Notes under the pieces: generated by a model | Seen by the model: only the letters and a program-made list of their open reading frames with translations | Told to the model about the DNA's origin: nothing | Database searches by the model: none | Assembly (NCBI GenBank): GCA_963775555.1 | Contig: CAVZJJ010000004.1 | Span: 30,814 to 94,813 of the forward strand | Origin: an uncultured Bacteroidota bacterium | Lineage (GTDB): Bacteria > Bacteroidota > Bacteroidia > AKYH767-A > 2013-40CM-41-45 | Direction of reading: 5' to 3' | DNA: 64,000 nucleotides | Program-made: the position numbers and the translations under genes | Shown: positions 11,009-57,221 of the stretch, in pieces | How the letters are laid out: the number at the start of each line of letters is the position of its first letter | Position numbering within the stretch: position 1 is the stretch's first letter

Positions 11009-11011
11009 TGA

Positions 11012-14660: not shown

Positions 14661-14677
14661 CAAAGGAAATTCCTTTG
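14661..14677. promoter_or_regulatory. perfect 8+1+8 palindrome CAAAGGAA-A-TTCCTTTG upstream of the giant gene
   Basis: Seen directly in the sequence. It lies 93 nt upstream of ATG 14770 and 174 nt upstream of ATG 14851. It may be an operator or a hairpin; no function is known. Confidence 0.3.
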
Positions 14678-14769
14678 TGGGGGAATTTTTATTGTAATCA
14701 TTTGATCAACTTGATCCTTCCCAAGAAGGGTATTTTTCAATTCGCTTATAAAAAATTTAAAGATTTATC

Positions 14770-27900: not shown

Positions 27901-30900
27901 CAGCATACCATTCAATGGAGCTACTATTGGTGGCACTTCACAATACATCCAGTATAAAGCAGATTTTACAACATCAAATACTGCATTTACTCCTGTATTA
28001 ATGGATGTTTCAATTGCGTGTACTACTCCACAGGACTCTCCTCCAACAGTTACTACAGATCCTTTGTCACAAACAAAATGTGATGGAGAAACAGTTTCTC
28101 TTGTATCCGGAGCCTCTGGCAATCCGTTGCCGGATGTACAATGGCAAGTCAGTACAGATAATGGATTAACATGGCAGGATCTCATTAGTGAAACCAATGC
28201 AGTTCTGACTTTCACAGTAAGTAACTCTGAAAATGGATACCAGTATCGTGCAATATGGACAAACACCTTTGGAATTGATACATCATTATCTGCTACACTA
28301 ATAGTCAATGCTGCTCCAAGCGCAACTATTATAGCTGCGAATAATCCGATTTGTCCTGGAGGTATTGTGGAGCTGCAGTTGACCGGTGCTACCGGTGCTT
28401 CTCCTTATTCAATTGTGGTGAATGGCAATACTTATTCCCCTGTAACGGCAGGAACTACCTTTGCAAGCCTGGATCCAACCGAATTCAGTATTTGGGGCAA
28501 TACAGGAAGTCCTGTGAATACAAGTGTAAACGACGGTCAGGACATTGAGGTTGGTACGAAATTCAGATCTACACTAAGTGGATATGTTAACGGAGTTCGT
28601 TTTTACAAAGGGCTCACAAACACGGCAACACATGTTGCGCATTTATGGACATCTGGCGGAACACTTTTAGCAACTGAGACATTCACTTCAGAAACTGCAA
28701 GTGGCTGGCAGGAAGTAAGGTTTACTTCTCCGGTTCCTATTACAGCGAATACTACTTATATCGTATCTTATTTTTCACCTAACCCGGGAAACTTTGCCAT
28801 AAGTGCAGGATTTTTCGCAAGTGCAGGTGTTACAAACGGACCGCTTACAGCTTTACAAGCCGGTATTGACGGGGTAAATGGTGTATATGCATATGGAGGA
28901 GGGTTCCCGAGCGGCGGAAATAATGCAAATTACTGGGTAGATGTTTTGTTCTCACAGATAGATCTGTCTATGCCACTTAGCTTTGACCTAAGTAGCATTA
29001 CAGATAATAATGGATGTATAAACACCGGTAGTCCATTGAGCAATGTAACTGTTACGGTCAATTCATTGCCTGAAGGAACGGTTTCCGCAACACCATCTAC
29101 CGTATGTGATGGTGGCGTGGTCAATCTCACATATACTTCAACAGCAGGTAGCGGACCATTTTCACTTGTTATAAATGGAATCACATATCCTAATATCATT
29201 AGCGGAATACCATTCAGTGCAGGACTTGCCAGCTATTCTGGAACTCCAGCCAGCATCTGGACGCCATCGACAGTTGGTGGTACCAATGTAGTGGATAATA
29301 CGGCAACAGAATTGGGAATACACTTCAGGTCTTCTCTTCCCGGTACAATCTCTGGTATTCGTTTTTATAAAACGGGAACTGACATATTAACCTTCACCGG
29401 TTCGCTCTGGGATTTAGGAAACACTACAATACCTTTGGCAACAGCTTCAATTCTAACAGACGCTACTCCGGGCTGGAAGCAAATTGATTTCCCTAGTCCG
29501 ATAACGATCCCTGCCAATACTACTTACATGGCATCCTATTTTTCTCCGAGTCCAAACTATTACTCTTATACTTCAGGTGGCTTATCTACGCCTGTTGTCA
29601 ATGCTCCATTGACTGCAGAATCAAGTTTTTATAAACAGCCGGGTCCTGGATTCCCTGTCAGCAATAGCACTGCCAATTATTGGGTTGATGTTGTTTTCAA
29701 CAGTGCAACTAGTATATCAACATTTAATCTCACCAGTATTAGTGGTTCTGCAGGTTGCACATCAAGCGGCAGTCCAATTAGTAGTGCCAATGTAAATGTG
29801 TTGAATAATAGTGCTTCATCATCATCCACGCCTATCACAGCCTGTGATTTGTATACATGGAATGGTGTTGCACACAATGCATCGGGTACTTATACCACGA
29901 CAGGACTTACAAATTCTGTAGGATGTGATTCATCAGCAACAGTTGTGCTGACGATCAATTACAGCTCTACATCCAGTTCAACAGAGGATGTCTGTGACAC
30001 ATATACCTGGAACGGAAATACCTACACAGTATCAGGAGTCTATACCTTTAGTTCAACGAATGCAGCAGGTTGTGATTCTACCGCTACATTGAACCTGACG
30101 ATCAGAAACAGTTCAACATCTGCGACGACCGAAGATGTATGTGATTCATATTCGTGGAACGGAACTACCTACACGGCATCAGGAACCTATACTTATTCCA
30201 CGTTAAACGAAGTTGGATGTGATTCAACGGCTACATTGAACCTGACGATCAGAAACAGTTCAACTTCCAGTTCAACGGTGGATGTTTGCGATTCGTATAC
30301 CTGGAATGGAACTACCTACACAACATCAGGAACCTATACTTATTCAACGTTGAACGAAGTTGGTTGTGATTCTACAGCCACTCTGAACTTAACCATCCGC
30401 TATGCTAGCACATCAAGCTCAACAGTAGATGTTTGTGATTCATATACGTGGAACGGAACTACCTACACGGCATCCGGAGTTTATACCTTTAGTTCAACGA
30501 ATGCAGCAGGTTGTGATTCAACAGCGACATTGAACTTAACAATCCGTTACGCTACCACTTCCAGTTCAACGGTGGATGTGTGTGATTCGTATACCTGGAA
30601 TGGAACTACCTACACAGCATCAGGAACCTATACTTATTCCATGCTGAACGAAGCAGGTTGTGATTCTACGGCCACTCTGAACTTAACCATCCGTTATGCT
30701 AGCACATCAAGCTCAACAGTAGATGTATGTGATTCATATTCGTGGAACGGAAATACCTACACGGCATCAGGACTTTATACCTTTAGTTCAACGAATGCAG
30801 CAGGTTGTGATTCAACAGCGACATTGAACTTAACAATCCGTTACGCTACCACTTCCAGTTCAACGGTGGATGTATGTGATTTATATTCGTGGAACGGAAC

Positions 30901-33900
30901 TACCTACACAACATCAGGAACCTATACTTATTCCACGTTAAACGAAGTTGGATGTGATTCTACGGCCACTCTGAACTTAACCATCCGTTATGCAACAACT
31001 TCCAGTTCAACGGTGGATGTTTGCGATTCGTATACCTGGAATGGAACTACCTACACAACATCAGGAACCTATACTTATTCAACGTTGAACGAAGTTGGTT
31101 GTGATTCAACGGCTACATTGAACCTGACGATTCGATCTGCTACAACTTCCAGTTCAACGGTGGATGTTTGCGACAGCTATACCTGGAATGGAACGACTTA
31201 CATTGCATCGGGAGTTTATACCTATAGCACAACAAATGCAGCAGGATGTGATTCGACAGCAACACTCAACTTAACGATCCGTTATGCTACCACATCAAGC
31301 AGTACAGAGGATGTTTGTGACAGCTACACTTGGAACGGTACTACCTATACTGCATCCGGAGTTTATTCGTATAGCACTCTTAATGCTGCAGGTTGTGATT
31401 CAACGGCTACATTGAACCTGACGATCAGAAACAGTTCAACATCTGCTACGACCGAAGATGTATGTGATTCATATTCGTGGAACGGAAATATCTACACGAC
31501 ATCAGGAACCTATACTTATTCCACGTTAAACGAAGTTGGTTGTGATTCTACAGCCACACTGAATCTGACGATCCGATCTGCTACAACTTCCAGTTCAACA
31601 GTAGATGTTTGCGATTCGTATACCTGGAATGGAACTACCTACACAACATCAGGAACCTATACTTATTCTACGTTAAACGAAGTTGGTTGTGATTCAACGG
31701 TTACATTGAACTTAACAATCCGTTACGTTACCACTTCCAGTTCAACGGTGGATGTTTGTGACAGCTATACTTGGAACGGAAATAACTACACAGCATCAGG
31801 AGCCTATACTTATAGCACGCTTAATGCAGCTGGTTGTGATTCAACGGCAACGCTGAATCTGACGATCCGATCTGCTACAACTTCCAGTTCAACAGTGGAT
31901 GTTTGCGATTCGTATACCTGGAATGGAGCTACCTACACGGCATCAGGAACCTATACTTATTCCACGTTAAACGAAGTTGGATGTGATTCAACGGCTACAT
32001 TGAACCTGACGATCAGAAACAGTTCAACTTCCAGTTCAACGGTGGATGTTTGCGATTCGTATACCTGGAATGGAACTACCTACACAACATCAGGAACCTA
32101 TACTTATTCAACGTTGAACGAAGTTGGTTGTGATTCTACAGCCACTCTGGACTTAACCATCCGTTATGCAACAACTTCCAGTTCAACGGTGGATGTGTGT
32201 GATTCATATACGTGGAACGGAACTACCTACACGGCATCCGGAGTTTATACCTTTAGTTCAACGAATGCAGCAGGTTGTGATTCAACAGCGACATTGAACT
32301 TAACCATCCGTTACGCTACCACTTCCAGTTCAACGGTGGATGTGTGTGATTCGTATACCTGGAATGGAACTACCTACACAGCATCAGGAACCTATACTTA
32401 TTCCACGCTGAACGAAGCAGGTTGTGATTCTACGGCCACTCTGAACTTAACCATCCGTTATGCTAGCACATCAAGCTCAACAGTAGATGTGTGTGATTCA
32501 TATTCGTGGAACGGAACTACCTACACAGCATCAGGAACCTATACTTATTCCACGTTGAACGATGTTGGTTGTGATTCTACGGCCACTCTGAACTTAACCA
32601 TCCGTTATGCTAGCACATCAAGCTCAACAGTAGATGTGTGTGATTCGTATACATGGAATGGTAATACCTACACCGCCTCAGGAACCTATACTTATTCCAC
32701 GTTAAACGAAGTTGGATGTGATTCTACGGCCACACTGAATCTGACGATCCGATCTGCTACAACTTCCAGTTCAACAGTGGATGTATGTGATTCATATTCG
32801 TGGAACGGAACTACCTACACAGCATCAGGAGTCTATACCTTTAGTTCAACGAATGCAGCAGGTTGTGATTCTACAGCCACTCTGAACTTAACCATCCGCT
32901 ATGCTAGCACATCAAGCTCAACAGTAGATGTTTGTGATTCATATACGTGGAACGGAACTACCTACACGGCATCCGGAGTTTATACCTTTAGTTCAACGAA
33001 TGCAGCAGGTTGTGATTCAACAGCGACATTGAACTTAACCATCCGTTACGCTACCACTTCCAGTTCAACAGTGGATGTTTGCGATTCGTATACCTGGAAT
33101 GGAGCTACCTACACGGCATCAGGAACCTATACTTATTCCTCGTTAAACGAAGTTGGATGTGATTCAACGGCTACATTGAACTTAACAATCCGTTACGCTA
33201 GCACATCAAGCTCAACAGTAGATGTCTGTGATTCGTATACCTGGAATGGAACTACCTACACAGCATCAGGAACCTATACTTATTCCACATTAAACGAAGT
33301 TGGTTGTGATTCAACGGCTACATTGAACTTAACAATCCGTTACGCTACCACTTCCAGTTCAACGGTGGATGTGTGTGATTCATATACGTGGAACGGAACT
33401 ACCTACACCGCATCAGGAACCTATACTTATTCCACGTTAAACGAAGTTGGATGTGATTCAACAGCGACATTGAACCTGACAATCAGAAACAGTTCAACGT
33501 CCAGTACGACTGAGGATGTGTGTGATTCGTATACCTGGAACGGAACTACCTACACAACATCAGGAACCTATACTTATTCCACGTTAAACGAAGTTGGTTG
33601 TGATTCTACCGCTACATTGAACCTGACAATCAGAAACAGTTCAACATCTGCTACGACCGAAGATGTATGTGATTCATATTCGTGGAACGGAACTACCTAC
33701 ACGACATCAGGAACCTATACTTATTCTACGTTAAACGAAGCAGGTTGTGATTCTACAGCCACTCTGGACTTAACCATTCGTTATGCTAGCACATCAAGCT
33801 CAACAGTAGATGTGTGTGATTCATATTCGTGGAACGGAACTACCTACACAGCATCAGGAATCTATACTTATTCCACGTTAAACGAAGTTGGTTGTGATTC

Positions 33901-36900: not shown

Positions 36901-39900
36901 GTGTGATTCGTATACCTGGAACGGAACTACCTACACGGCATCCGGAGTTTATACCTTTAGTTCAACGAATGCAGCAGGTTGTGATTCAACGGCTACATTG
37001 AACTTAACAATCCGTTACGCTAGCACATCAAGCTCAACAGTAGATGTGTGTGATTCATATTCGTGGAACGGAAATATCTACACGACATCAGGAACCTATA
37101 CTTATTCTACGTTAAACGAAGCAGGTTGTGATTCTACAGCCACTCTGGACTTAACCATTCGTTATGCTAGCACATCAAGCTCAACAGTAGATGTGTGTGA
37201 TTCATATTCGTGGAACGGAACTACCTACACAGCATCAGGAATCTATACTTATTCCACGTTAAACGAAGTTGGTTGTGATTCGACGGCTACATTGGATCTG
37301 ACGATTCGTTATGCTAGCACTTCCAGTTCAACGGTGGATGTCTGTGACAGCTATACCTGGAACGGCACGACTTATACTACGTCTGGAGTTTATACCTATA
37401 GCACGCTCAATGAAGCAGGTTGTGATTCGACAGCAACACTCAACTTAACGATACGTTACGCTACCACATCAAGCAGTACAGAGGATGTTTGTGACAGCTA
37501 TACCTGGAATAGTACGACTTATACTACGTCCGGAGTTTATACTTATAGCACGCTCAACGAAGCAGGATGTGATTCAACGGAAACACTCAACTTAACGATC
37601 CGTTACGCTACCACATCGAGTTCAACAGAAGATGTTTGCGACAGCTATACCTGGAATGGAACGACTTACATTGCATCGGGAGTTTATACCTATAGCACAA
37701 CAAATGCAGCTGGATGTGATTCGACAGCAACACTCAACTTAACGATCCGTTATGCTACCACATCAAGCAGTACAGAGGATGTTTGTGACAGCTACACTTG
37801 GAACGGCACTACCTATACTGCATCCGGAGTTTATTCGTATAGCACTCTTAATGCAGCAGGTTGTGATTCTACAGCCACTTTGAACTTAACCATTCGTTAT
37901 GCTAGCACATCAAGCTCAACAGTAGATGTCTGTGATTCATATTCGTGGAACGGAACTACCTACACAGCATCCGGAGTTTATACCTTTAGTTCAACGAACG
38001 AAGCAGGTTGTGATTCTACCGCTACATTGAACCTGACGATCAGAAACAGTTCAACATCTGCTACGACCGAAGATGTATGTGATTCATATTCGTGGAACGG
38101 AACTACCTACACAACATCAGGAACCTATACTTATTCCACGTTAAACGAAGTTGGATGTGATTCAACGGCTACATTGAACTTAGCAATCCGTTACGCTAGC
38201 ACATCAAGCTCAACAGTAGATGTCTGTGACAGCTACACCTGGAATGGAACGACATATGCTACATCGGGAGTTTATACCTATAGCACAACAAATGCAGCAG
38301 GATGTGATTCGACGGCAACACTCAACTTAACCATCCGTTATGCTACCACATCGAGTGCAATAGTGGATGTTTGTGACAGCTACACCTGGAACGGCACGAC
38401 TTATACTACGTCCGGAGTATATGCTTATAGCACCCTCAACGAAGCAGGTTGTGATTCTACAGCTACACTCAATCTGACAATTCGTTATGCATCCACTTCC
38501 AGTGCAACAGAGGATGTCTGTGACAGCTATACCTGGAACGGCACGACTTACACTGCATCGGGAGTTTATACTTATAGCACGCTCAACGAAGCAGGATGTG
38601 ATTCAACGGCAACACTCAACTTAACGATCCGTTACGCTACCACATCGAGTTCAACAGAAGATGTTTGCGACAGCTATACCTGGAATGGAACGACTTACAT
38701 TGCATCGGGAGTTTATACCTATAGCACAACAAATGCAGCTGGATGTGATTCGACAGCAACACTCAACTTAACGATCCGTTATGCTACCACATCAAGCAGT
38801 ACAGAGGATGTTTGTGACAGCTACACTTGGAACGGCACTACCTATACTGCATCCGGAGTTTATTCGTATAGCACTCTTAATGCAGCAGGTTGTGATTCTA
38901 CAGCCACTTTGAACTTAACCATTCGTTATGCTAGCACATCAAGCTCAACAGTAGATGTCTGTGATTCATATTCGTGGAACGGAACTACCTACACAGCATC
39001 CGGAGTTTATACCTTTAGTTCAACGAACGAAGCAGGTTGTGATTCTACCGCTACATTGAACCTGACGATCAGAAACAGTTCAACATCTGCTACGACCGAA
39101 GATGTATGTGATTCATATTCGTGGAACGGAACTACCTACACAGTATCAGGAACCTATACTCATTCCACGTTAAACGAAGTTGGATGTGATTCTACAGCCA
39201 CTCTGGACTTAACCATTCGTTATGCAACAACTTCCAGTTCAACAGTAGATGTGTGTGATTCATATTCGTGGAACGGAACTACCTACACGACATCAGGAAC
39301 CTATACTTATTCCACGTTAAACGAAGTTGGTTGTGATTCTACAGCCACACTGAATCTGACGATCCGATCTGCTACAACTTCCAGTTCAACAGTAGATGTT
39401 TGCGATTCGTATACCTGGAATGGAACTACCTACACAGCATCAGGAACCTATACTTATTCCACGTTAAACGAAGTTGGATGTGATTCAACGGCTACATTGA
39501 ACCTGACGATTCGATCTGCTACAACTTCCAGTTCAACGGTGGATGTTTGTGATTCATATTCGTGGAACGGAACTACCTACACAGCATCAGGAGTCTATAC
39601 CTTTAGTTCAACGAATTCAGCAGGTTGTGATTCTACAGCCACACTGAATCTGACGATCCGATCTGCTACAACTTCCAGTTCAACAGTAGATGTTTGCGAT
39701 TCGTATACCTGGAATGGAACTACCTACACAGCATCAGGAATCTATACTTATTCCACGTTAAACGAAGTTGGATGTGATTCTACGGCCACACTGAATCTGA
39801 CGATCCGATCTGCTACAACTTCCAGTTCAACAGTGGATGTATGTGATTCATATTCGTGGAATGGAACTACCTACACAGCATCAGGAACCTATACTTATTC

Positions 39901-42900
39901 CACGTTAAACGAAGTTGGTTGTGATTCTACAGCTACCTTGAACCTGGCGATCAGAAACAGTTCAACGTCCAGTTCAACAGTAGATGTGTGTGATTCATAT
40001 ACGTGGAACGGAACTACCTACACGGCATCCAGAGTTTATACCTTTAGTTCAACGAATGCAGCAGGTTGTGATTCAACAGCGACATTGAACTTAACAATCC
40101 GTTACGCTACCACTTCCAGTTCAACAGTAGATGTTTGCGATTCGTATACCTGGAATGGAGCTACCTACACGGCATCAGGAACCTATACTCATTCCACGTT
40201 AAACGAAGTTGGATGTGATTCTACAGCCACTCTGGACTTAACCATTCGTTATGCTAGCACATCAAGCTCAACAGTAGATGTGTGTGATTCATATTCGTGG
40301 AACGGAACTACCTACACGGCATCCGGAGTTTATACCTTTAGTTCAACGAATGCAGCAGGTTGTGATTCTACCGCTACATTGAACCTGGCGATCAGAAACA
40401 GTTCAACGTCCAGTTCGACTGAAGATGTTTGCGATTCGTATACCTGGAACGGTACTAACTACACAACATCAGGAACCTATACTTATTCCACGTTAAACGA
40501 AGCAGGTTGTGATTCTACAGCCACTCTGGACTTAACCATTCGTTATGCTAGCACATCAAGCTCAACAGTAGATGTGTGTGATTCATATTCGTGGAACGGA
40601 ACTACCTACACAGCATCAGGAATCTATACTTATTCCACGTTAAACGAAGTTGGTTGTGATTCGACGGCTACATTGGATCTGACGATTCGTTATGCTAGCA
40701 CTTCCAGTTCAACGGTGGATGTCTGTGACAGCTATACCTGGAACGGCACGACTTATACTACGTCTGGAGTTTATACCTATAGCACGCTCAATGAAGCAGG
40801 TTGTGATTCGACAGCAACACTCAACTTAACGATACGTTACGCTACCACATCAAGCAGTACAGAGGATGTTTGTGACAGCTATACCTGGAATAGTACGACT
40901 TATACTACGTCCGGAGTTTATACTTATAGCACGCTCAACGAAGCAGGATGTGATTCAACGGCAACACTCAACTTAACGATCCGTTACGCTACCACATCGA
41001 GTTCAACAGAAGATGTTTGCGACAGCTATACCTGGAATGGAACTACCTACACAACATCAGGAACCTATACTTATTCCACGTTAAACGAAGTTGGATGTGA
41101 TTCTACGGCCACTCTGAACTTAACAATCCGTTACGTTACCACTTCCAGTTCAACGGTGGATGTTTGTGACAGCTATACTTGGAACGGAAATAACTACACA
41201 GCATCAGGAGCCTATACTTATTCCACGTTAAACGAAGTTGGATGTGATTCTACGGCCACACTGAATCTGACGATCCGATCTGCTACAACTTCCAGTTCAA
41301 CAGTAGATGTGTGTGATTCATATACGTGGAACGGAACTACCTACACGGCATCCGGACTTTATACCTTTAGTTCAACGAATGCAGCAGGTTGTGATTCAAC
41401 AGCGACATTGAACTTAACAATCCGTTACGCTACCACTTCCAGTTCAACGGTGGATGTGTGTGATTCGTATACCTGGAATGGAACTACCTACACAGCATCA
41501 GGAACCTATACTTATTCCATGCTGAACGAAGCAGGTTGTGATTCTACGGCCACTCTGAACTTAACCATCCGTTATGCTAGCACATCAAGCTCAACAGTAG
41601 ATGTATGTGATTCATATTCGTGGAACGGAAATACCTACACGGCATCAGGACTTTATACCTTTAGTTCAACGAATGCAGCAGGTTGTGATTCAACAGCGAC
41701 ATTGAACTTAACAATCCGTTACGCTACCACTTCCAGTTCAACGGTGGATGTATGTGATTTATATTCGTGGAACGGAACTACCTACACAACATCAGGAACC
41801 TATACTTATTCCACGTTAAACGAAGTTGGATGTGATTCTACGGCCACTCTGAACTTAACCATCCGTTATGCAACAACTTCCAGTTCAACGGTGGATGTTT
41901 GCGATTCGTATACCTGGAATGGAACTACCTACACAACATCAGGAACCTATACTTATTCCACGTTAAACGAAGTTGGATGTGATTCAACGGCTACATTGAA
42001 CCTGACGATTCGATCTGCTACAACTTCCAGTTCAACGGTGGATGTTTGCGACAGCTATACCTGGAATGGAACGACTTACATTGCATCGGGAGTTTATACC
42101 TATAGCACAACAAATGCAGCAGGATGTGATTCGACAGCAACACTCAACTTAACGATCCGTTATGCTACCACATCAAGCAGTACAGAGGATGTTTGTGACA
42201 GCTACACTTGGAACGGCACTACCTATACTGCATCCGGAGTTTATTCGTATAGCACTCTTAATGCTGCAGGTTGTGATTCTACCGCTACATTGAACCTGGC
42301 GATCAGAAACAGTTCAACTTCCAGTTCAACAGTAGATGTGTGTGATTCATATACGTGGAACGGAACTACCTACACGGCATCCGGAGTTTATACCTTTAGT
42401 TCAACGAATGCAGCAGGTTGTGATTCTACCGCTACATTGAACCTGGCGATCAGAAACAGTTCAACGTCCAGTTCGACTGAAGATGTTTGCGATTCGTATA
42501 CCTGGAATGGAACTGCCTACACAGCATCAGGAGTCTATACCTTTAGTTCAACGAACGCAGCAGGTTGTGATTCAACAGCGACATTGAACTTAACAATTCG
42601 TTACGCTACCACTTCCAGTTCAACGGTGGATGTTTGTGATTCATATACGTGGAACGGAAATACCTACACGGCATCAGGAACCTATACTTATTCCACGTTA
42701 AACGAAGTTGGTTGTGATTCTACGGCCACTCTGAACTTAACCATCCGTTATGCAACAACTTCCAGTTCAACGGTGGATGTTTGCGATTCGTATACCTGGA
42801 ATGGAGCTACCTACACGGCATCAGGAACCTATACTTATTCCACGTTAAACGAAGTTGGATGTGATTCAACGGCTACTTTGAACCTGACGATTCGATCTGC

Positions 42901-44266
42901 TACAACTTCCAGTTCAACGGTGGATGTTTGCGATTCGTATACCTGGAATGGAACTACCTACACAGCATCAGGAGTCTATACCTTTAGTTCAACGAATGCA
43001 GCAGGTTGTGATTCTACAGCCACTCTGAACTTTACCATCCGTTATGCTAGCACATCAAGCTCAACAGTAGATGTTTGTGATTCATATTCGTGGAACGGAA
43101 CTACCTACACGGCATCAGGAACCTATACTTATTCCACGTTAAACGAAGTTGGTTGTGATTCAGCGGCTACATTGAACCTGACGATTCGATCTGCTACAAC
43201 TTCCATTTCAACAGTGGATGTATGTGACAGCTATACGTGGAACGGAACTACCTACACAGCATCAGGAACCTATATTTATTCAACGTTAAACGAAGTTGGA
43301 TGTGATTCAACGGCTACATTGGATCTGACAATTCGTTATGCATCCACTTCCAGTTCAACGGTGGATGTCTGTGACAGCTACACCTGGAACGGCACGACTT
43401 ACACTACATCGGGAGTTTATACATATAGCACGCTCAACGAAGCAGGTTGTGATTCAACAGCAACACTCAACCTTACAATTCGTAACAGCACATCTTCCAC
43501 AGAAACAATCACTGCCACCAACTCTTATACATGGCCTGTGAATGGAATTACTTACACAACAAGCGGCACCTATACACACACAGGTGTAAATCTTGCCGGT
43601 TGTTCGCATGTAAGCACCTTGATCCTGACCATTGATATAAACGGAGTTAATCTTGATCTGAAGTTATTCCTTGAAGGGTACATTGTCAGTTCCGGTCCAA
43701 CTATGATGTACAGCACCTTGTATGATCTTGAACAAGGAGGAATGCTGACCGGACCTTATAGCTTTGATGCTACCGATACTATTCAGGTGAATCTTTGGAC
43801 CGCTGCCAGTGTAGCACTTGGAAATCTTGATCCTGACTATTCAGAGAAGGTCATCCTTCACAACGATGGTTCGGCTTCAGTGAACTTCGCCACTGCCCCT
43901 GCCGGCGATTATTACATCGCGGTGAAACATAAGAACAGTATTGAGACCTGGAGCAGCCTTGAAGTGGCCCTGTCTTCTACAGCAATTCTATATGACTTCA
44001 GCGACCTGATCACACGTGCTTATGATGATGGCACAAACCCTCCTATGCAGAATGTGGGCGGTGTATTTGCATTCTACAGTGGAGATGTCAACCAGGATGG
44101 AACCGTGGATGCTGTGGATATGAATTATGTGTATAATGACAATAACCTTTCCCTCTACGATTACCTTATAACGGATTGTACAGGAGACGGTACGGCAGAT
44201 GCTGTGGACATGAACTATGTTTATAATAACAATAACCTGTCATTATACTATGCCCGTCCTTATTAA
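17759..44266 (+). CDS. main body of the giant multidomain surface protein (8,835 codons as given in the ORF track)
   Basis: An uninterrupted 26.5-kb frame. The ORF-track start is a TTG, and the first in-frame ATG is about 100 codons downstream. It has no signal peptide of its own, and its first residues continue the Fn3-like module expected after LamG3 of the upstream ORF. The domain order is listed in the sub-features. Confidence 0.9.
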   Translation: MISPADISTGINVSPTLSWNAAAGASSYQIQVSSVANFATTVYDQSGIAITSAVVSPALLNNTVYYWRVNASNASGTSAWSSVWSFTTTAAPSPLVCHLQMEEGSGSTLFDSSTYGNNGTTVGSPTWATGIFGQALSLNGSTQYATVADAASLDVSTSITLAAWIKPAGASNTTQYVIKKATQGTTNGYELSLSSAGKVFVRFNQFTSADTYRINSVSSYPLNSSAWMHIAATYDGTTMKLYVNGIQESGNLAGPAAIVTNTLPLGIGAQGDGVSKFNGLLDDVRVYNVALTLAEIQALASPPSPGLISPADLASGVALSPGLSWNASATATSYQVQVSTTSDFSSTVYDQSGIATTSTTVSPALLNNTVYYWRVNASNAFGTSAWSSVWSFTTAVAGPTTLVLQDGLNGYSGTRDTYIWETTPATPRGAETTFVQDINASDERRSLLLFDLSSIPSGASIQSAELQFYVDAEGEGFNMHRMLVPWDEATVCYTSIGNRHFAANSTDAESAVDINWPGNLGYTGFITITVPASTVQDWINGTMTNNGWLMIGTHATNGQQLRSREYATAGDRPKLTVIYSTAIVPLITISGTPLSAFSSQAGSPSTEQSYTVSGSNLTDSILITAPADFEISTILGGDYGPFITLYPSGNAVSSTTIYVRLNRSTGGASSGDITHTSNGATTQNVSLSGTTTETLPTVVLQDGLNGYSGTRDTYIWDSAPTTVRGAETTIVQDKNVSLNPLDERMSLLQFDLTSIPTGSVIQSAELQFYVSSEGQGFDMYRMLVPWDEATLTYASIGNRYFAADDVDAEAAANTSWPGVDTYTGYITVSVPASTIQDWIDGTLTNNGWLMIAIHNDDGQQLASRENATAANRPKLTVTYSSGIANVPPNQPVDPSPLDHVSSLSTSPNICATVSDPDGDHLQVQFYGRVKSGSTSNFTVVGLPDTQFYTEDPQGANSGGGGSNAIFKVQTQWIADHRLDSNIVFVTHLGDCAQNGDAKIIEWQRADTSMKKIEYPNVPITDGIPFGICVGNHDQGTIGNPDGNTTYYNQFFGQVRFTGRGYYGGHYGSNNDNHYQLFSAGGINFIHISIEYYVNGTTSSLQPVLDWADALLKTYSNRKAILSSHNMLGTGNPANFQGPGQKIYDDLKDNPNLILMLAGHVSGEGRRTDTYNGNTIHTLMADYQSGYSNGGNGYLRIMQFIPEENLLSVKTFSPYSNTSFTGASSEFTLPVNLTQGYALLGTNTNVTSGTSSCIQWPSLVQGQEYEWYVVVSDGEYSTTGPVWTFTANNVNPPIVTTEPISQSKCAGDAVSFISAASGDPVLTVQWQISTDNGTSWNDTTGATNPTLTFTTTASDNGKQYRAIWSNGSGKDTTLAVVLTIHPAIIVSNVSHSAIICNGGTATVTITAGGGTAPLAYTFNGVGPQASNIFTGISAGAAYVYSVSDANNCDPATGTFDVLEPAAIISSTTITACDSSEWNGVFYTSSGSYTTTGLISSAGCDSSATVVLTINNSTSSSLSVTATNTYTWSANSVTYTASGTYTAVSTNGVGCTQTDTLILIINGNFGSNISDENALTGNPPSEWDNISGAGDLSIQGFATDISVNRGNQVRFKINTDASAYTINIYRLGYYQGNGARWVGTGVVTATLPQTQPADLYDPVTALTDCGNWDESAHWDVPSNAVSGVYIARLERADNNGASHIIFIVRDDSGNADILFKTSDATWQAYNGYGGNSLYPPGVGASGPPALNHASKVSYNRPFYTRAGGGGSSAAEDWVFNAEYPMIRWLERNCYNVSYSTDVDMDRDASPITPSIHKILLSVGHDEYWSAAERTKFENARNSGVHLAFLSGNEIYWKTRWENSIDASNTPHRTLVCYKEGTLGENVCGTKCDPLSTEWTGLWRDGCAYPGADGCNPENALTGQISWVGSTGAITVPDTYKAFRFWRNTSIASLGIGQTATLSANTLGYEWDPASTNGKYPYGRILLSNTSLSQTHNLSLYRHSSGAVVFGAGTVQWSWGLDGVHDMGSSTEDVRMQQATINLFADMGVTPACIQAGLVANSPTDVTAPLSVISSPVNTDTLTDGNTVSIIGTASDVDGVVAGVEVSFDGGTTWNLAIGTTSWTYSWTPTTLGATTIHSRAYDDNGNMEATGTAPSANAINVIITTGPAVACPCSIFQPSDTPVNLNGNDGNAIEVGTKFNSSENGYVTGVRFYKAAGDNGTHIGNLWTGTGTILGSVTFTGETASGWQEMSFGSPIAINADTTYVISYHSSANYYTFTQNYFASAVVNGFLKALADGEDGPNGVYTYSPSTAFPTSSYLKSNYWVDVVFDTSLAPDVTPPTVISVVPANNASSISINASVNGTFNEAIDPATLSASTFELRDPLNAIVNASVSYNAATRTATLTPSSALAYSTVYTANLIGGLTDPRIKDVAGNALAANYSWTFTTESAPPPPPSEGPGGPILVISDASNPFSRYPVEILRAEGLNEFYAMDISIVNAGVLLNYDVVILGEMTLGGAQVTMLTDWVNAGGVLIALRPDAQLSTLLGITVAGGSLADKYLLVNTATGPGVGIVNQTIQFHGAADQYNLNGATSLATLYSDASTTTVYPAVTTNDVGGNGGKAISFTYDLAKSVVYTRQGNPVWADQKRDGQTGPIRSDDQFFPDWIDFNKIAIPQADEQQHLLANIILKGNLHKKPLPRTWFLPKGLKAAVVMTGDDHGDAGMQPRFDINIAESNVGCSVEDWECIRSTGYLYVGTTFTNAQAIAYNNMGFEVALHVNTNCLNFTDTQFQSLITSQMGAFQSVYTGIPAPATNRNHCIAWSGYSMTAEVEAANGIRFDVNYYYWPASWINNRPGMFTGSGIPMRFAKTDGSIIDCYQGTTQMPDESGETFPAFINALLDKANGPEGYYGVFTTNMHFDNTNHADANAIVASAKARGIPVVSAKQMLDWLDGRNGSSFNSIQWSNNQLSFEVNAASGSRNMKGMVPTACENGNLNSITYNGGSLSYTTETIKGIQYAFFDATLGSGTYVADYSPDTTAPVISNIIATPHGNGTATITWDTDEQSTSWVDYAASPGTLSLNSSDPALVTSHSVTLTGLMQAQTYYFRVTSADFATNSTTSPVPPDSLSFTMPASPCASDQTSADFNGGTTVSNTLIIPDGDGAVSLSPALIEEFSGTSIPSGWTEGIFNAGGTTFSGGVVTVNGTHIYSNSNFGPGSSIEFAATYNLGDFQNVGFSDDQPFNNSPWVTIGQGLTPDGNVYARASDGSNINIGSSLLGTSHVYRINWNATNFEFYIDGNTTPAATINLTVASNMYLQISDVHSTDGVLSVDWIRLLPYATPGTFISRIFDAGSVKDWGIVSWTEDLPSGTTLQLSQRQSNSNVAILGASWTSIPFNGATIGGTSQYIQYKADFTTSNTAFTPVLMDVSIACTTPQDSPPTVTTDPLSQTKCDGETVSLVSGASGNPLPDVQWQVSTDNGLTWQDLISETNAVLTFTVSNSENGYQYRAIWTNTFGIDTSLSATLIVNAAPSATIIAANNPICPGGIVELQLTGATGASPYSIVVNGNTYSPVTAGTTFASLDPTEFSIWGNTGSPVNTSVNDGQDIEVGTKFRSTLSGYVNGVRFYKGLTNTATHVAHLWTSGGTLLATETFTSETASGWQEVRFTSPVPITANTTYIVSYFSPNPGNFAISAGFFASAGVTNGPLTALQAGIDGVNGVYAYGGGFPSGGNNANYWVDVLFSQIDLSMPLSFDLSSITDNNGCINTGSPLSNVTVTVNSLPEGTVSATPSTVCDGGVVNLTYTSTAGSGPFSLVINGITYPNIISGIPFSAGLASYSGTPASIWTPSTVGGTNVVDNTATELGIHFRSSLPGTISGIRFYKTGTDILTFTGSLWDLGNTTIPLATASILTDATPGWKQIDFPSPITIPANTTYMASYFSPSPNYYSYTSGGLSTPVVNAPLTAESSFYKQPGPGFPVSNSTANYWVDVVFNSATSISTFNLTSISGSAGCTSSGSPISSANVNVLNNSASSSSTPITACDLYTWNGVAHNASGTYTTTGLTNSVGCDSSATVVLTINYSSTSSSTEDVCDTYTWNGNTYTVSGVYTFSSTNAAGCDSTATLNLTIRNSSTSATTEDVCDSYSWNGTTYTASGTYTYSTLNEVGCDSTATLNLTIRNSSTSSSTVDVCDSYTWNGTTYTTSGTYTYSTLNEVGCDSTATLNLTIRYASTSSSTVDVCDSYTWNGTTYTASGVYTFSSTNAAGCDSTATLNLTIRYATTSSSTVDVCDSYTWNGTTYTASGTYTYSMLNEAGCDSTATLNLTIRYASTSSSTVDVCDSYSWNGNTYTASGLYTFSSTNAAGCDSTATLNLTIRYATTSSSTVDVCDLYSWNGTTYTTSGTYTYSTLNEVGCDSTATLNLTIRYATTSSSTVDVCDSYTWNGTTYTTSGTYTYSTLNEVGCDSTATLNLTIRSATTSSSTVDVCDSYTWNGTTYIASGVYTYSTTNAAGCDSTATLNLTIRYATTSSSTEDVCDSYTWNGTTYTASGVYSYSTLNAAGCDSTATLNLTIRNSSTSATTEDVCDSYSWNGNIYTTSGTYTYSTLNEVGCDSTATLNLTIRSATTSSSTVDVCDSYTWNGTTYTTSGTYTYSTLNEVGCDSTVTLNLTIRYVTTSSSTVDVCDSYTWNGNNYTASGAYTYSTLNAAGCDSTATLNLTIRSATTSSSTVDVCDSYTWNGATYTASGTYTYSTLNEVGCDSTATLNLTIRNSSTSSSTVDVCDSYTWNGTTYTTSGTYTYSTLNEVGCDSTATLDLTIRYATTSSSTVDVCDSYTWNGTTYTASGVYTFSSTNAAGCDSTATLNLTIRYATTSSSTVDVCDSYTWNGTTYTASGTYTYSTLNEAGCDSTATLNLTIRYASTSSSTVDVCDSYSWNGTTYTASGTYTYSTLNDVGCDSTATLNLTIRYASTSSSTVDVCDSYTWNGNTYTASGTYTYSTLNEVGCDSTATLNLTIRSATTSSSTVDVCDSYSWNGTTYTASGVYTFSSTNAAGCDSTATLNLTIRYASTSSSTVDVCDSYTWNGTTYTASGVYTFSSTNAAGCDSTATLNLTIRYATTSSSTVDVCDSYTWNGATYTASGTYTYSSLNEVGCDSTATLNLTIRYASTSSSTVDVCDSYTWNGTTYTASGTYTYSTLNEVGCDSTATLNLTIRYATTSSSTVDVCDSYTWNGTTYTASGTYTYSTLNEVGCDSTATLNLTIRNSSTSSTTEDVCDSYTWNGTTYTTSGTYTYSTLNEVGCDSTATLNLTIRNSSTSATTEDVCDSYSWNGTTYTTSGTYTYSTLNEAGCDSTATLDLTIRYASTSSSTVDVCDSYSWNGTTYTASGIYTYSTLNEVGCDSTATLDLTIRYASTSSSTVDVCDSYTWNGTTYTTSGVYTYSTLNEAGCDSTATLNLTIRYATTSSSTEDVCDSYTWNSTTYTTSGVYTYSTLNEAGCDSTATLNLTIRYATTSSSTEDVCDSYTWNGTTYIASGVYTYSTTNAAGCDSTATLNLTIRYATTSSSTEDVCDSYTWNGTTYTASGVYSYSTLNAAGCDSTATLNLTIRYASTSSSTVDVCDSYSWNGTTYTASGVYTFSSTNEAGCDSTATLNLTIRNSSTSATTEDVCDSYSWNGTTYTVSGTYTYSTLNEVGCDSTATLNLTIRYATTSSSTVDVCDSYSWNGITYTATGTYTYSTLNEVGCDSTATLNLTIRSATTSSSTVDVCDSYTWNGTTYTTSGTYNYSTLNEVGCDSTATLNLTIRSATTSSSTVDVCDSYTWNGTTYTTSGVYTFSSTNAAGCDSTATLNLTIRNSSTSATTEDVCDSYSWNGTTYTASGVYSYSTLNEAGCDSTATLNLTIRNSSTSSSTVDVCDSYSWNGNTYTASGVYTFSSTNAAGCDSTATLNLTVRYATTSSSTVDVCDSYTWNGTTYTASGVYTYSTLNEAGCDSTATLNLTIRYASTSSSTEDVCDSYTWNGTTYIASGVYTYSTTNAAGCDSTATLNLTIRYASTSSSTVDVCDSYTWNGTTYTTSGTYTYSTLNEVGCDSTATLNLTIRNSSTSATTEDVCDSYSWNGTTYTASGTYTYSTLNEVGCDSTATLNLTIRYATTSSSTVDVCDSYTWNGTTYTASGTYTYSTLNEVVCDSTATLNLTIRNSSTSATTEDLCDSYTWNGNTYTASGTYTYSTLNEVGCDSTATLNLTIRSATTSSSTVDVCDSYTWNGTTYTASGTYTYSTLNEVGCDSTATLNLAIRNSSTSSTTEDVCDSYTWNGTTYTTSGTYTYSTLNEVGCDSTATLNLAIRNSSTSSSTEDVCDSFTWNGTTYTVSGTYTYSTLNEVGCDSTATLNLTIRNSSTSSTTEDVCDSYTWNGTTYTASGVYTFSSTNAAGCDSTATLNLTIRYASTSSSTVDVCDSYSWNGNIYTTSGTYTYSTLNEAGCDSTATLDLTIRYASTSSSTVDVCDSYSWNGTTYTASGIYTYSTLNEVGCDSTATLDLTIRYASTSSSTVDVCDSYTWNGTTYTTSGVYTYSTLNEAGCDSTATLNLTIRYATTSSSTEDVCDSYTWNSTTYTTSGVYTYSTLNEAGCDSTETLNLTIRYATTSSSTEDVCDSYTWNGTTYIASGVYTYSTTNAAGCDSTATLNLTIRYATTSSSTEDVCDSYTWNGTTYTASGVYSYSTLNAAGCDSTATLNLTIRYASTSSSTVDVCDSYSWNGTTYTASGVYTFSSTNEAGCDSTATLNLTIRNSSTSATTEDVCDSYSWNGTTYTTSGTYTYSTLNEVGCDSTATLNLAIRYASTSSSTVDVCDSYTWNGTTYATSGVYTYSTTNAAGCDSTATLNLTIRYATTSSAIVDVCDSYTWNGTTYTTSGVYAYSTLNEAGCDSTATLNLTIRYASTSSATEDVCDSYTWNGTTYTASGVYTYSTLNEAGCDSTATLNLTIRYATTSSSTEDVCDSYTWNGTTYIASGVYTYSTTNAAGCDSTATLNLTIRYATTSSSTEDVCDSYTWNGTTYTASGVYSYSTLNAAGCDSTATLNLTIRYASTSSSTVDVCDSYSWNGTTYTASGVYTFSSTNEAGCDSTATLNLTIRNSSTSATTEDVCDSYSWNGTTYTVSGTYTHSTLNEVGCDSTATLDLTIRYATTSSSTVDVCDSYSWNGTTYTTSGTYTYSTLNEVGCDSTATLNLTIRSATTSSSTVDVCDSYTWNGTTYTASGTYTYSTLNEVGCDSTATLNLTIRSATTSSSTVDVCDSYSWNGTTYTASGVYTFSSTNSAGCDSTATLNLTIRSATTSSSTVDVCDSYTWNGTTYTASGIYTYSTLNEVGCDSTATLNLTIRSATTSSSTVDVCDSYSWNGTTYTASGTYTYSTLNEVGCDSTATLNLAIRNSSTSSSTVDVCDSYTWNGTTYTASRVYTFSSTNAAGCDSTATLNLTIRYATTSSSTVDVCDSYTWNGATYTASGTYTHSTLNEVGCDSTATLDLTIRYASTSSSTVDVCDSYSWNGTTYTASGVYTFSSTNAAGCDSTATLNLAIRNSSTSSSTEDVCDSYTWNGTNYTTSGTYTYSTLNEAGCDSTATLDLTIRYASTSSSTVDVCDSYSWNGTTYTASGIYTYSTLNEVGCDSTATLDLTIRYASTSSSTVDVCDSYTWNGTTYTTSGVYTYSTLNEAGCDSTATLNLTIRYATTSSSTEDVCDSYTWNSTTYTTSGVYTYSTLNEAGCDSTATLNLTIRYATTSSSTEDVCDSYTWNGTTYTTSGTYTYSTLNEVGCDSTATLNLTIRYVTTSSSTVDVCDSYTWNGNNYTASGAYTYSTLNEVGCDSTATLNLTIRSATTSSSTVDVCDSYTWNGTTYTASGLYTFSSTNAAGCDSTATLNLTIRYATTSSSTVDVCDSYTWNGTTYTASGTYTYSMLNEAGCDSTATLNLTIRYASTSSSTVDVCDSYSWNGNTYTASGLYTFSSTNAAGCDSTATLNLTIRYATTSSSTVDVCDLYSWNGTTYTTSGTYTYSTLNEVGCDSTATLNLTIRYATTSSSTVDVCDSYTWNGTTYTTSGTYTYSTLNEVGCDSTATLNLTIRSATTSSSTVDVCDSYTWNGTTYIASGVYTYSTTNAAGCDSTATLNLTIRYATTSSSTEDVCDSYTWNGTTYTASGVYSYSTLNAAGCDSTATLNLAIRNSSTSSSTVDVCDSYTWNGTTYTASGVYTFSSTNAAGCDSTATLNLAIRNSSTSSSTEDVCDSYTWNGTAYTASGVYTFSSTNAAGCDSTATLNLTIRYATTSSSTVDVCDSYTWNGNTYTASGTYTYSTLNEVGCDSTATLNLTIRYATTSSSTVDVCDSYTWNGATYTASGTYTYSTLNEVGCDSTATLNLTIRSATTSSSTVDVCDSYTWNGTTYTASGVYTFSSTNAAGCDSTATLNFTIRYASTSSSTVDVCDSYSWNGTTYTASGTYTYSTLNEVGCDSAATLNLTIRSATTSISTVDVCDSYTWNGTTYTASGTYIYSTLNEVGCDSTATLDLTIRYASTSSSTVDVCDSYTWNGTTYTTSGVYTYSTLNEAGCDSTATLNLTIRNSTSSTETITATNSYTWPVNGITYTTSGTYTHTGVNLAGCSHVSTLILTIDINGVNLDLKLFLEGYIVSSGPTMMYSTLYDLEQGGMLTGPYSFDATDTIQVNLWTAASVALGNLDPDYSEKVILHNDGSASVNFATAPAGDYYIAVKHKNSIETWSSLEVALSSTAILYDFSDLITRAYDDGTNPPMQNVGGVFAFYSGDVNQDGTVDAVDMNYVYNDNNLSLYDYLITDCTGDGTADAVDMNYVYNNNNLSLYYARPY
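18955..19500 (+). other. DNRLRE-like (CBM96-like) domain, copy 1
   Basis: VLQDGLNGYSGTRDTYIW...ERRSLLLFDLSSIPSGASIQSAELQFYV...HRMLVPWDEATVCY...NNGWLM...RPKLTVIY. This pattern matches the DNRLRE domain as I remember it. Confidence 0.6.
19845..20400 (+). other. DNRLRE-like domain, copy 2
   Basis: A paralogue of copy 1 (VLQDGLNGYSGTRDTYIW...ERMSLLQFDLTSIP...YRMLVPWDEATLTY...RPKLTVTY). Confidence 0.6.
20565..21410 (+). other. calcineurin-like metallophosphoesterase domain
   Basis: Motifs in the canonical order: GLPDTQ, HLGDCAQNGD, GNHD (20846-20857), SSHN and AGHVSGEG. Confidence 0.7.
21630..22135 (+). other. Ig-like domain followed by a SprB-repeat-like module
   Basis: PPIVTTEPISQSKCAGDAVSFISAASGDPVLTVQWQISTDNGTSW...YRAIWSN is Ig-like. 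It is followed by CNGGTATVTITAGGGTAPLAYTFNG...YSVSDANNC, which resembles a SprB repeat. Confidence 0.5.
22140..22440 (+). repeat. isolated two-unit copy of the Cys-pair repeat (founder-like module)
   Basis: The two units are ITACDSSEWNGVFYTSSGSYTTTGLISSAGCDSSATVVLTINNS and VTATNTYTWSANSVTYTASGTYTAVSTNGVGCTQTDTLILIING. They resemble the first and last units of the 94-unit array respectively. Confidence 0.75.
22445..23905 (+). other. N,N-dimethylformamidase beta-subunit-like domain
   Basis: ENALTGNPPSEWD...IQGFATDISVNRGNQVRFKINTDASAYTINIYRLGYYQGNGAR ... VGHDEYWS ... GNEIYWKTRWE ... GYEWD ... QQATINLFADMG. The pattern is as I remember it for this family, which often co-occurs with DUF4082. Confidence 0.55.
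24253..24735 (+). other. DUF4082 domain, copy 1
   Basis: IEVGTKFNSSENGYVTGVRFYKAAGDNGTHIGNLWTGTGTILGSVTFTGETASGWQEMSF..TTYVISYHS...NYWVDVVF. Confidence 0.7.
24740..25080 (+). other. bacterial Ig-like (Big_5 / SbsA-type) domain followed by a PPPPPS linker
   Basis: DVTPPTVISVVPANNASSISINASVNGTFNEAIDPATLSASTFELRD...VAGNALAANYSWTFTT. Confidence 0.6.
25110..26830 (+). other. central region of about 570 aa of unassigned fold (possible amidotransferase-like plus deacetylase/hydrolase-like parts)
   Basis: I recognise no secure motif. The segments GPILVISDASNPFSRYPVEILRAEG...DVVILGE and AAVVMTGDDHGDAG...ALHVNTNC...NHCIAW are only suggestive. Confidence 0.25.
26835..27095 (+). other. Fn3 domain
   Basis: DTTAPVISNIIATPHGNGTATITWDTDEQSTSWVDY...YYFRVTSADFATNSTTS. 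Confidence 0.6.
27130..27745 (+). other. ConA-like lectin/glucanase-type domain (tentative)
   Basis: The beta-rich segment ...IEFAATYNLGDFQNVGFSDD...HVYRINWNATNFEFYIDGN...LSVDWIRLLPY resembles the LamG/ConA-like fold. Confidence 0.35.
28030..28310 (+). other. Ig-like domain, second copy
   Basis: PPTVTTDPLSQTKCDGETVSLVSGASGNPLPDVQWQVSTDNGLTW...YRAIWTN. It is a paralogue of the domain at 21630. Confidence 0.5.
28487..28950 (+). other. DUF4082 domain, copy 2
   Basis: IEVGTKFRSTLSGYVNGVRFYKGLTNTATHVAHLWTSGGTLLATETFTSETASGWQEVRF...TTYIVSYFS...NYWVDVLF. Confidence 0.7.
29254..29700 (+). other. DUF4082 domain, copy 3
   Basis: ELGIHFRSSLPGTISGIRFYKTGTDILTFTGSLWDLGNTTIPLATASILTDATPGWKQIDF...TTYMASYFS...NYWVDVVF. 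Confidence 0.65.
30435..31435 (+). repeat. second higher-order block, copy 1 (units 5-10)
   Basis: Matches 41313-42313 (offset 10878 = 74 units) with only a handful of mismatches over about 1 kb. Confidence 0.8.
33700..34750 (+). repeat. 7-unit higher-order block, copy A (units 27-33)
   Basis: Near-identical to 37081-38106 (offset 3381 = 23 units, one mismatch seen at 37571). It is partly identical to 38561-39160 (offset 4410) and 40470-41041 (offset 6762). Confidence 0.85.
37081..38106 (+). repeat. 7-unit higher-order block, copy B (units 50-56)
   Basis: See copy A. About 1.0 kb of identity except for a single A-to-E codon change (CDSTETLNL). Confidence 0.85.
38561..39160 (+). repeat. partial higher-order block, copy C (units 60-63)
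   Basis: Identical by eye to 34151-34750 (offset 4410 = 30 units). Confidence 0.8.
40470..41041 (+). repeat. partial higher-order block, copy D (units 73-75)
   Basis: Matches 33708-34279 (offset 6762 = 46 units) with one mismatch seen. Confidence 0.8.
41313..42313 (+). repeat. second higher-order block, copy 2 (units 79-84)
   Basis: See 30435-31435. Confidence 0.8.
43640..44263 (+). other. C-terminal module of about 205 aa with two dockerin/EF-hand-like loops; no T9SS sorting domain recognised
   Basis: LKLFLEGYI...DYYIAVKHKNSIETWS...FYSGDVNQDGTVDAVDMNYVYN (44081-44125) and DCTGDGTADAVDMNYVYN (44181-44213). The protein ends ...LSLYYARPY. Confidence 0.6.
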
Positions 44267-56811: not shown

Positions 56812-56823
56812 GCTCTACCTTGC

Positions 56824-57204: not shown

Positions 57205-57221
57205 GGCTTGTAAATTTGGGT

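Follow-up and report, generated by a model that had tools for sequence, protein, structure and literature searches.

GhpA of Aureispira sp. CCB-QB1 (PDB 9flp, 9fls and 9flw) contains 52 stem repeats with an immunoglobulin (Ig)-like fold; disulfides link Ig-like domains that lie near one another, each domain bears O-glycans, and the protein has a type IX secretion system (T9SS) sorting domain (bioRxiv 10.1101/2024.01.29.577165). Marinomonas primoryensis MpAFP/MpIBP contains about 120 tandem Ig-like beta-sandwich repeats with stiffened junctions, which project its ligand-binding domains (PMC4083281, PMC5550230, PMC7493085). Cellulosomal scaffoldins are anchored to the cell surface by dyads of an X-module and a dockerin, or XDoc dyads (PMC5141474). 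In addition, a general O-glycosylation sequon, D-(S/T)-(A/I/L/V/M/T), is described for the secreted proteins of Bacteroidota (PMC8550257). In this work, we describe a giant gene that can be compared with all of these systems. It lies on contig CAVZJJ010000004.1 (positions 30,814 to 94,813, forward strand) of an uncultured Bacteroidota bacterium (assembly GCA_963775555.1); this stretch of 64,000 nucleotides is called the window, and the coordinates below refer to it. The gene encodes 94 tandem copies of a 49-residue unit with two conserved cysteines.

We consider it rather likely that this array is the stalk of a secreted surface protein of about 9,830 residues and about 1 MDa, namely a disulfide-braced, glycosylated rod that is anchored at its C-terminus and holds an N-terminal head distally. 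An initial annotation of the window had proposed a long fibre that carries a head with enzyme- and lectin-like parts off the cell, or the reverse arrangement; the former is still the best reading, in view of the spacer-like use of the array and of an anchor-like C-terminal module, both described below. The copies of the unit in the window are as follows.

29813-29962, forward strand: unit 1 of the array, divergent, 50 residues long, with both Cys kept (55 bits against the unit model).
29963-43486, forward strand: 92 regular units of 49 residues (147 bp), delimited by Tandem Repeats Finder and the unit model.
43487-43639, forward strand: terminal unit 94, 51 residues long, with Thr in place of Cys11 and with Cys37 kept.
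22139-22441, forward strand: two isolated units in the head, after a SprB-like segment (E-values of 3e-14 and 1e-11 against the unit model).

The unit model is a hidden Markov model (HMM) constructed from the window units and homologous fragments, and it was run over both strands of the window. It delimits 94 contiguous units at 29813-43639, which correspond to residues 4019-8627 of one open reading frame (ORF; 17759-44266, forward strand, 8835 residues) that encloses the array, and the two further units at residues 1461-1561 of the same ORF; no units beyond these 94 + 2 are found in the other frames and strands of the window. The only array that Tandem Repeats Finder detects in the window spans 29972-43455, with a period of 147, 91.7 copies, 79% matches, 1% indels and a score of 11544. 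The initial annotation thus gave the correct count of in-frame units and, at about 29815-43640, the correct coordinates; the strict 147-bp period that it described holds for the 92 units with exact 49-residue spacing (29963-43486), but not for the first and the last unit.

Conservation within the array is very high. In all of the 92 regular units C11, D12, W16, N17, Y21, Y27, C37, D38, S39, T42, L43 and R48 are invariant, and G25 and G36 are kept in 91, which bears out the near-invariance of both Cys, the Trp, two Gly and several Tyr and Thr noted at first. The three non-conservative substitutions named then are all present (G36V, A41E and G25R in units 43, 52 and 69, respectively, counted from the first regular unit), but the list was incomplete: G18S (three times), Y29H (twice), S13L (twice) and several Thr-to-Ile changes are also non-conservative. 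The array as a whole comprises 4609 residues (488 kDa, pI 4.05). Thr, Ser and Tyr make up 24%, 17% and 9% of it, and the strands carry T-x-T-like ladders. It is free of lysine and has exactly one arginine per unit, at position 48; protease resistance may be a reason for this composition.

As the initial annotation had suggested, consecutive units were modeled with AlphaFold2, using three units and an alignment of 68 sequences. The resulting model is all beta, with a predicted local distance difference test (pLDDT) score of 90.4 and a predicted template modeling (pTM) score of 0.59, and has five strands per unit, at positions 2-11, 14-16, 19-21, 25-32 and 38-48. Strand 1 ends at Cys11, the hairpin of strands 2 and 3 carries W16, and the loop N33-G36-C37 lies between strands 4 and 5. 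The unit is thus predicted to be a five-strand mini Ig-like fold, in agreement with the beta-rich module expected at first. The 10-residue Ser/Thr linker of the initial annotation is not recovered: these residues form the confidently predicted strand 1 instead, and the predicted connection between units is only about 3 residues long.

The arrangement of the strands can also be derived from covariation. Mean-field direct coupling analysis (DCA) was applied to 3434 unique adjacent-unit pairs from the 150 best relatives (effective number of sequences, Meff, 2451), and the couplings within the unit replicate in both copies of the unit pair. They place strands 4 and 5 in an antiparallel hairpin (26-44, 27-43, 30-40, 31-39), strands 1 and 5 in parallel (4-41, 7-44, 10-47) and strands 2 and 3 in a small hairpin (15-20), with W16 packed on L43. 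Because strands 1 and 5 are parallel, Cys11 and Cys37 of one unit lie at opposite ends of the domain. The top-ranking coupling of the whole analysis connects two units: it is 11-37', between Cys11 of unit n and Cys37 of unit n+1, with a score of 6.93, about 17 standard deviations above the mean. The next inter-unit pairs of different positions are 38-39' (1.38), then 48-35' and 48-33'. From these inter-unit couplings it follows that the top of one unit touches the loop between strands 4 and 5 of the next.

The loss of cysteines in the relatives follows the same pattern. For C11(n) and C37(n+1), the two-by-two counts of presence and loss are 3813, 2 / 42, 44, with an odds ratio of about 2000, and the 44 double losses are spread over 32 proteins with varied replacements. 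Two other pairings were considered and rejected. The pair C11-C37 within one unit, which is the C-x25-C disulfide of the initial annotation, has an odds ratio of 0.3 (4424, 151 / 194, 2) and would join Cys at opposite ends of the domain, so that DCA, Cys co-loss and strand register all contradict it. A hairpin staple C37(n)-C11(n+1) has an odds ratio of 2.6 (3685, 137 / 72, 7) and misfits the strand register. The ends of the arrays are also informative: in the relatives, C11 is missing in 16.2% of last units versus 1.9% of internal units, and C37 in 8.3% of first units versus 0.9%. The replacement of Cys11 by Thr in unit 94 is to be expected if the usual partner of Cys11 lies in the following unit, and the second head copy, the last of its run, has the same replacement. 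The conserved Cys thus most likely form inter-unit disulfides C11(n)-C37(n+1), i.e. C-x74-C, which chain the domains. Such a chain would provide a testable design rule for stiff, protease-resistant protein rods.

Taken as a mechanism, the unit would be a pared-down Ig/PKD-like domain in which strand 1 is directed upwards, Trp16 sits in the short hairpin of strands 2 and 3, strand 4 comes back down and strand 5 leads up again. The chain would then enter at one end and exit at the other, which would allow end-to-end stacking with about 3 connecting residues, and a disulfide would join Cys11, at the top of unit n, to Cys37 of unit n+1, which lies in the bottom loop there. Covalently braced in this way, the 94 units could form a semi-rigid rod of about 0.3 µm (an estimate that assumes 3-3.5 nm per unit). 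The D-S-T beside each Cys37 would probably give the rod a glycan coat, the C-terminal X-module/dockerin-like domain would sit at the cell, and the head with its LamG, DUF4082 and DMFA2_C-like domains would be held out distally.

Among solved structures, the best Foldseek matches of the three-unit model in the PDB are cryo-EM fragments of GhpA (E-values of 9e-6 to 3e-3, probability 0.99-1.0), with template modeling (TM) scores of 0.36-0.38 and a root mean square deviation of 8-9 Å on a multi-domain alignment. GhpA is also a giant Bacteroidota surface protein with a stem of many small Ig-like repeats. However, phmmer and profile searches of all PDB chains return no GhpA chain at E<=10, the GhpA disulfide Cys2988-Cys3140 spans 152 residues as compared with 75 in the window protein, and GhpA is a heptamer with a T9SS sorting domain, whereas no such domain is found in the window protein. 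The next Foldseek matches are internalin K (InlK, number 3) and further adhesins with Ig-like domains in tandem, among them the extender of MpAFP (5irb). Region II of MpAFP is likewise a stalk of tandem Ig-like domains that holds a head off the cell, but the resemblance is functional only: MpAFP is a proteobacterial protein exported by a type I system, and its repeats are 104 residues long, nearly identical at the DNA level and stiffened by Ca2+, whereas the window array has 49-residue repeats, diverged DNA and probably inter-unit disulfides, and belongs to a member of the Bacteroidota. In accordance with this, the Pfam scans of the giant protein show no RTX (repeats in toxin) or type I secretion domain.

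The unit can also be compared with some known families. SprB and further adhesins of gliding Bacteroidota that are T9SS cargo of type A or B are alike in being huge, repetitive, Ig-like surface filaments, and relatives that bear the unit end in the CHU_C or Por_Secre_tail domain. However, the HMM of the SprB repeat (PF13573, 37 residues) does not match the units and is a separate domain beside them in one relative (L001, see below), and the window protein has an X-module/dockerin-like end where these adhesins have a T9SS sorting domain. In its second half (G-x-Y-T...N-x-x-G-C-D-S-x-x-T-L-x-L-T-I), the unit is similar to the F-G hairpin of PKD domains, and the internalin family LRR_adjacent (PF08191) is the commonest sub-threshold match, in 21 of 68 three-unit segments, besides the structural match to InlK. 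Neither family reaches its gathering score, and the unit has 49 residues as compared with 80-85 (PKD) and 57 (LRR_adjacent) profile positions and is without about half of the PKD strands. The window units give no match to the PKD profiles (PF00801/PF18911); in relatives, there are weak summed matches to profile positions 48-80, none of them individually significant.

A single unit matches no family at E<=1 in Pfam-A (2025 copy) and NCBIfam 20.0. Longer queries, namely four units and 68 three-unit segments, produce only summed sub-threshold matches (DUF2695, LRR_adjacent, ATE_N) with no significant stretch, and comparison with the PDB chain sequences, by single sequence and by profile, yields chance matches only (MtrC and a single-chain variable fragment). 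We found no description of the 49-residue repeat in the literature. The initial statement that the unit belongs to no named family therefore holds for all of these searches. The further suggestion that it is undescribed holds in the sense that there is no curated family, but not in a wider sense, since the unit occurs in many thousands of clusters and its predicted fold class appears to match that of the solved GhpA stem repeats.

For the spread of the unit, a profile of three-unit segments was searched against 1.84 billion clusters. It matches 29,751 cluster representatives (50% identity) at E<=1e-3 and 10,095 at E<=1e-30. In the Bacteroidota, where the initial annotation recommended looking, the unit is very common: the matches are mostly giant Bacteroidota proteins, chiefly of the T9SS cargo type, and many of them have 2,000-7,000 residues with tens of unit matches. 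Seven relatives were scanned further. Five of them end in a CHU_C or Por_Secre_tail domain, and in all seven the repeats are covered by no Pfam family. Source annotations of relatives include "gliding motility-associated-like", "Ig-like domain-containing" (Tenacibaculum, WP_198553793.1) and "fibronectin type III domain-containing" (Bacteroidales). The consensus of 1812 unique units keeps C11 at 98%, W16 at 90%, G36 at 90%, C37 at 98%, D38 at 80%, S39 at 85%, L43 at 94% and L45 at 98%. About 30,000 protein clusters contain the unit, often tens of times per protein, yet neither Pfam nor NCBIfam models it, so that much of the length of many giant Bacteroidota surface proteins is in effect left without annotation; a curated model would close this gap. 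The window protein, with 96 units and about 9,830 residues, is the largest example among the relatives retrieved; the maximum among the best 150 representatives is 68 units. A separate Foldseek match of the three-unit model is a 1423-residue protein of an uncultured marine phage in BFVD (A0A8D9FS04; E-value of 7e-12, 28% identity), so that the repeat family may also occur on phage-labeled contigs.

The glycosylation sequon is a regular part of the unit. In all 92 regular units D38-S39-T/A40 directly follows Cys37, and D-[ST]-[AILVMT] follows Cys37 in 73% of 5311 units of relatives. The density of sequons is 2.0 per 100 residues in the array versus 0.22 in the head, a 9-fold difference. The motif suggests that the rod is probably glycan-coated.

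Directly downstream of the array, the protein ends in a further module.

43640-44263, forward strand: X-module plus dockerin-like dyad, with two D-x-[NT]-x-D-G-x-x-D-x-x-D calcium-loop motifs, ending in ARPY.

The two calcium-loop motifs are DVNQDGTVDAVD and DCTGDGTADAVD. A model of the C-terminal 210 residues is one compact unit that consists of a beta-sandwich and a two-loop dockerin (pLDDT 95.9, pTM 0.91), and a structure search relates it to the XDoc dyads of scaffoldins (E-value of 2e-5, TM-scores of 0.61-0.66). As in the scaffoldins (PDB 2b59, 4fl4, 4wi0), the dyad stands at the C-terminus of a giant scaffold. However, sequence identity to them is 9-12%, the window host belongs to the diderm Bacteroidota, and no cohesin is encoded among the window ORFs. 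The module has a family of its own, with 98 matches; about 100 proteins, most of them unannotated, carry it at their C-terminus. Five relatives of the module (P0371, P0362, P0305, P0334 and P0350; 34-49% identical) score 25-30 bits, above the Pfam dockerin cutoff given below, and two module relatives have a Cohesin domain. A two-Cys unit stands directly upstream of the module in fourteen relatives and also in the loci L082 and L084; a 92%-identical fragment from a related genome (P0282) ends the same array. By analogy with the scaffoldins, the C-terminal module is a probable cell-proximal anchor, and it may serve as an alternative surface anchor that replaces the T9SS sorting domain of the relatives. 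An X-module/dockerin-like end in place of a T9SS domain raises a question of secretion and anchoring in a phylum where the T9SS is assumed to handle such cargo.

The remainder of the giant gene precedes the array and is composed as follows.

14770-17718, forward strand: N-terminal part of the giant gene (upstream ORF 14770-17748, 992 residues), from a Pfam scan and ORF continuity.
17719, forward strand: an additional C (GGT-C-GCT) when compared with the paralogous junction at 16651; the gene is split by the resulting shift of frame, and the upstream ORF stops at 17746-17748.
17720-29812, forward strand: head region, with Laminin_G_3, a DMFA2_C-like enzyme-like module, three DUF4082, Big_5, Ig/fn3-like and SprB-like segments (Pfam scan).

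The upstream ORF has a Sec-type signal peptide, MKSYYSFSRRLFNSLVLICSLLLMTGPSAYS with the cut before Q, at about 14851-14943, followed by three Laminin_G_3 domains and fn3-like domains. The end of this ORF together with the start of the large ORF is paralogous to the internal junction at 16651, and when base 17719 is deleted, the two become a single ORF of 9831 residues. Uninterrupted LamG-fn3-LamG proteins elsewhere (P0412 and P0452) cover 99-100% of the corrected junction; a homologue search with this junction returned only proteins of at most 577 residues and no giant orthologue. The extra C is due either to a sequencing error at one base of the consensus or to a frameshift of very recent origin.

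Homologues of the head are at best 72% identical and come mostly from metagenome-assembled genomes labeled Chitinophagaceae, Saprospiraceae or Sphingobacteriales; the single best match is labeled Chryseobacterium. The host of the window is probably a member of the Chitinophagales. The relative L001 shares head domains with the window protein and is 72% identical over the DMFA2_C-like segment queried. Its gene (L001 locus 9863-19975, 3370 residues) encodes about 15 variant units, besides a SprB repeat and a Por_Secre_tail domain. The array therefore appears to be a modular spacer, because the head of L001 is combined with a short variant array and a T9SS domain, and because units lie within the fetched 10 kb downstream in no more than 2 of the 79 head homologues. 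The units of L001 are without Trp (C-N-G-D-S-V-Q-V-G...G-C-D-S-T-V-T-T-V-L), and the unit family therefore tolerates the loss of the "invariant" Trp.

Several points weigh against the stalk that we propose. The gene is broken at 17719, and the array-bearing ORF as sequenced has no signal peptide. The last 288 residues contain no T9SS sorting domain (PF18962/TIGR04183, PF13585/TIGR04131) at E<=1 in Pfam and NCBIfam, and the putative substitute is a borderline case, since the window dockerin scores 17.5 bits (E-value of 0.005) against Pfam Dockerin_1 (PF00404), for which the cutoff is 22.9; moreover, the window ORFs include no cohesin with which it could interact. The pTM of 0.59 leaves the geometry between units uncertain, and the putative pairing of the Cys is taken from comparative data. 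Note that the co-loss counts come from related sequences, which inflates the p-value, and that inter-chain disulfides in a staggered bundle could give an identical Cys pattern.

An alternative, which we regard as unlikely, is that the array itself is the adhesive surface, i.e. a polyvalent, Tyr/Thr-rich, glycan-coated face for polysaccharide, mineral, ice-like or cell surfaces. The Thr, Ser and Tyr content and the T-x-T-like ladders described above would suit such a face, surface-facing residues are conserved across units (omega, the ratio of nonsynonymous to synonymous divergence, is about 0.12 even outside the core), and in some relatives (P0123, P0175 and P0162) the repeat accounts for more than 80% of the protein, so that little else is present. 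However, the most conserved positions (W16, L43, L45, Y21, Cys and Gly) covary as core or turn residues, the unit is joined, as a generic spacer would be, to many heads and tails that are unrelated to one another, and no carbohydrate-binding family matches.

Another alternative is that the array is not expressed, either because the gene is a recent pseudogene through the frameshift at 17719 or because the copy number is inflated by misassembled near-identical blocks; we judge this improbable. In addition to the extra C, which parts the ORF with the signal peptide from the ORF with the array, and to the nature of P0282, the C-terminal fragment of the closest relative, which was called as a truncated gene with its start within the final units, this alternative can be based on repeats of 1.0-1.1 kb that are 99% identical within the array. 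These blocks were found by a diagonal scan of the array.

33659-34788, forward strand: recent segmental duplication, 99.2% identical to 37040-38169 (1130 bp, lag of 23 units); part of it recurs a third time at 40445-41053.
30413-31440, forward strand: recent segmental duplication, 98.9% identical to 41291-42318 (1028 bp, lag of 74 units).

Such block duplications at 99% identity imply that the array grows by multi-unit duplication, and the copy number inside the duplicated blocks is provisional. A metagenome scan with the C-terminal module matched only short or distant contigs, so that it supplied no independent check of the copy number. However, the array in general does not look like an expansion of one unit. 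The mean pairwise identity of units is 78% in DNA and 85% in protein; between units, the proportion of synonymous differences (pS) is 0.55, near saturation, while that of nonsynonymous differences (pN) is 0.11, with an omega of about 0.12. Invariant residues are written with both of their codon families (Ser30 with TCN and AGY, Arg48 with CGN and AGA), and there are 77 distinct DNA units. Because of this near-saturated synonymous divergence, the low pN, the use of both codon families and the number of distinct units, the array is old and under purifying selection, and is not an assembly expansion of one unit. The GC content of the array is uniform with its flanks and the rest of the window. 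Moreover, the units form 68 clusters at >=97% identity, so that at least 68 units survive even if all copies at this level are collapsed, and the array is not an assembly artifact with far fewer units, an outcome the initial annotation had allowed for. No further stop or shift occurs across 26.5 kb, and a consensus error explains the single-base insertion equally well.

Finally, the model of the initial annotation, in which independent beads with an internal C-x25-C disulfide are strung on flexible 10-residue Ser/Thr linkers, is very improbable: two nearly invariant Cys per unit, a Ser/Thr-rich segment that resembles known linkers and the low pTM are compatible with it, but the "linker" is predicted as a confident strand that covaries in parallel with strand 5 and puts C11 and C37 at opposite ends, Cys loss within a unit is uncorrelated as compared with that of C11(n)/C37(n+1), and terminal units selectively lose C11.

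Returning to the proposed stalk, what distinguishes the window protein from the systems described at the outset is a repeat family of its own, the highest copy number among the relatives retrieved, a putative disulfide chain and an X-module/dockerin-like end in place of a T9SS domain. One could go further and suppose that the unit represents a large uncurated family of "disulfide-concatenated" mini-Ig domains, each stapled to the next, and that in the window protein and about a dozen relatives the rod is fixed via the X-module/dockerin-like C-terminus. This extension is doubtful as it stands. If it were true, it would represent a principle of rod building distinct from the Ca2+-clamped RTX extenders, as well as surface anchoring of the cohesin-dockerin type, which would stand in for the T9SS sorting domain in Bacteroidota and allied phyla.

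The surroundings of the giant gene are housekeeping genes. On its 5' side, positions 13656-14769 form a stretch of 1.1 kb that has no ORF longer than 63 residues and no tRNA or Rfam match; this stretch is presumably regulatory. The tRNA and Rfam scans gave no matches in the whole window. Further downstream, the reverse strand encodes SprA of the T9SS translocon (57341-63955) and a 1342-residue cadherin-repeat protein with a Por_Secre_tail sorting domain (50891-54919). As both are present in the window, the organism is a T9SS-bearing member of the Bacteroidota; its genome has a working-looking T9SS, though the giant protein is without the corresponding sorting signal. Between the giant gene and SprA, a 230-residue ORF (47138-47830, forward strand) has no Pfam match, and a 176-residue ORF (56683-57213, forward strand) shares its stretch with the glycine-cleavage H protein gene, which is encoded on the other strand (56824-57204), and is probably a spurious call.

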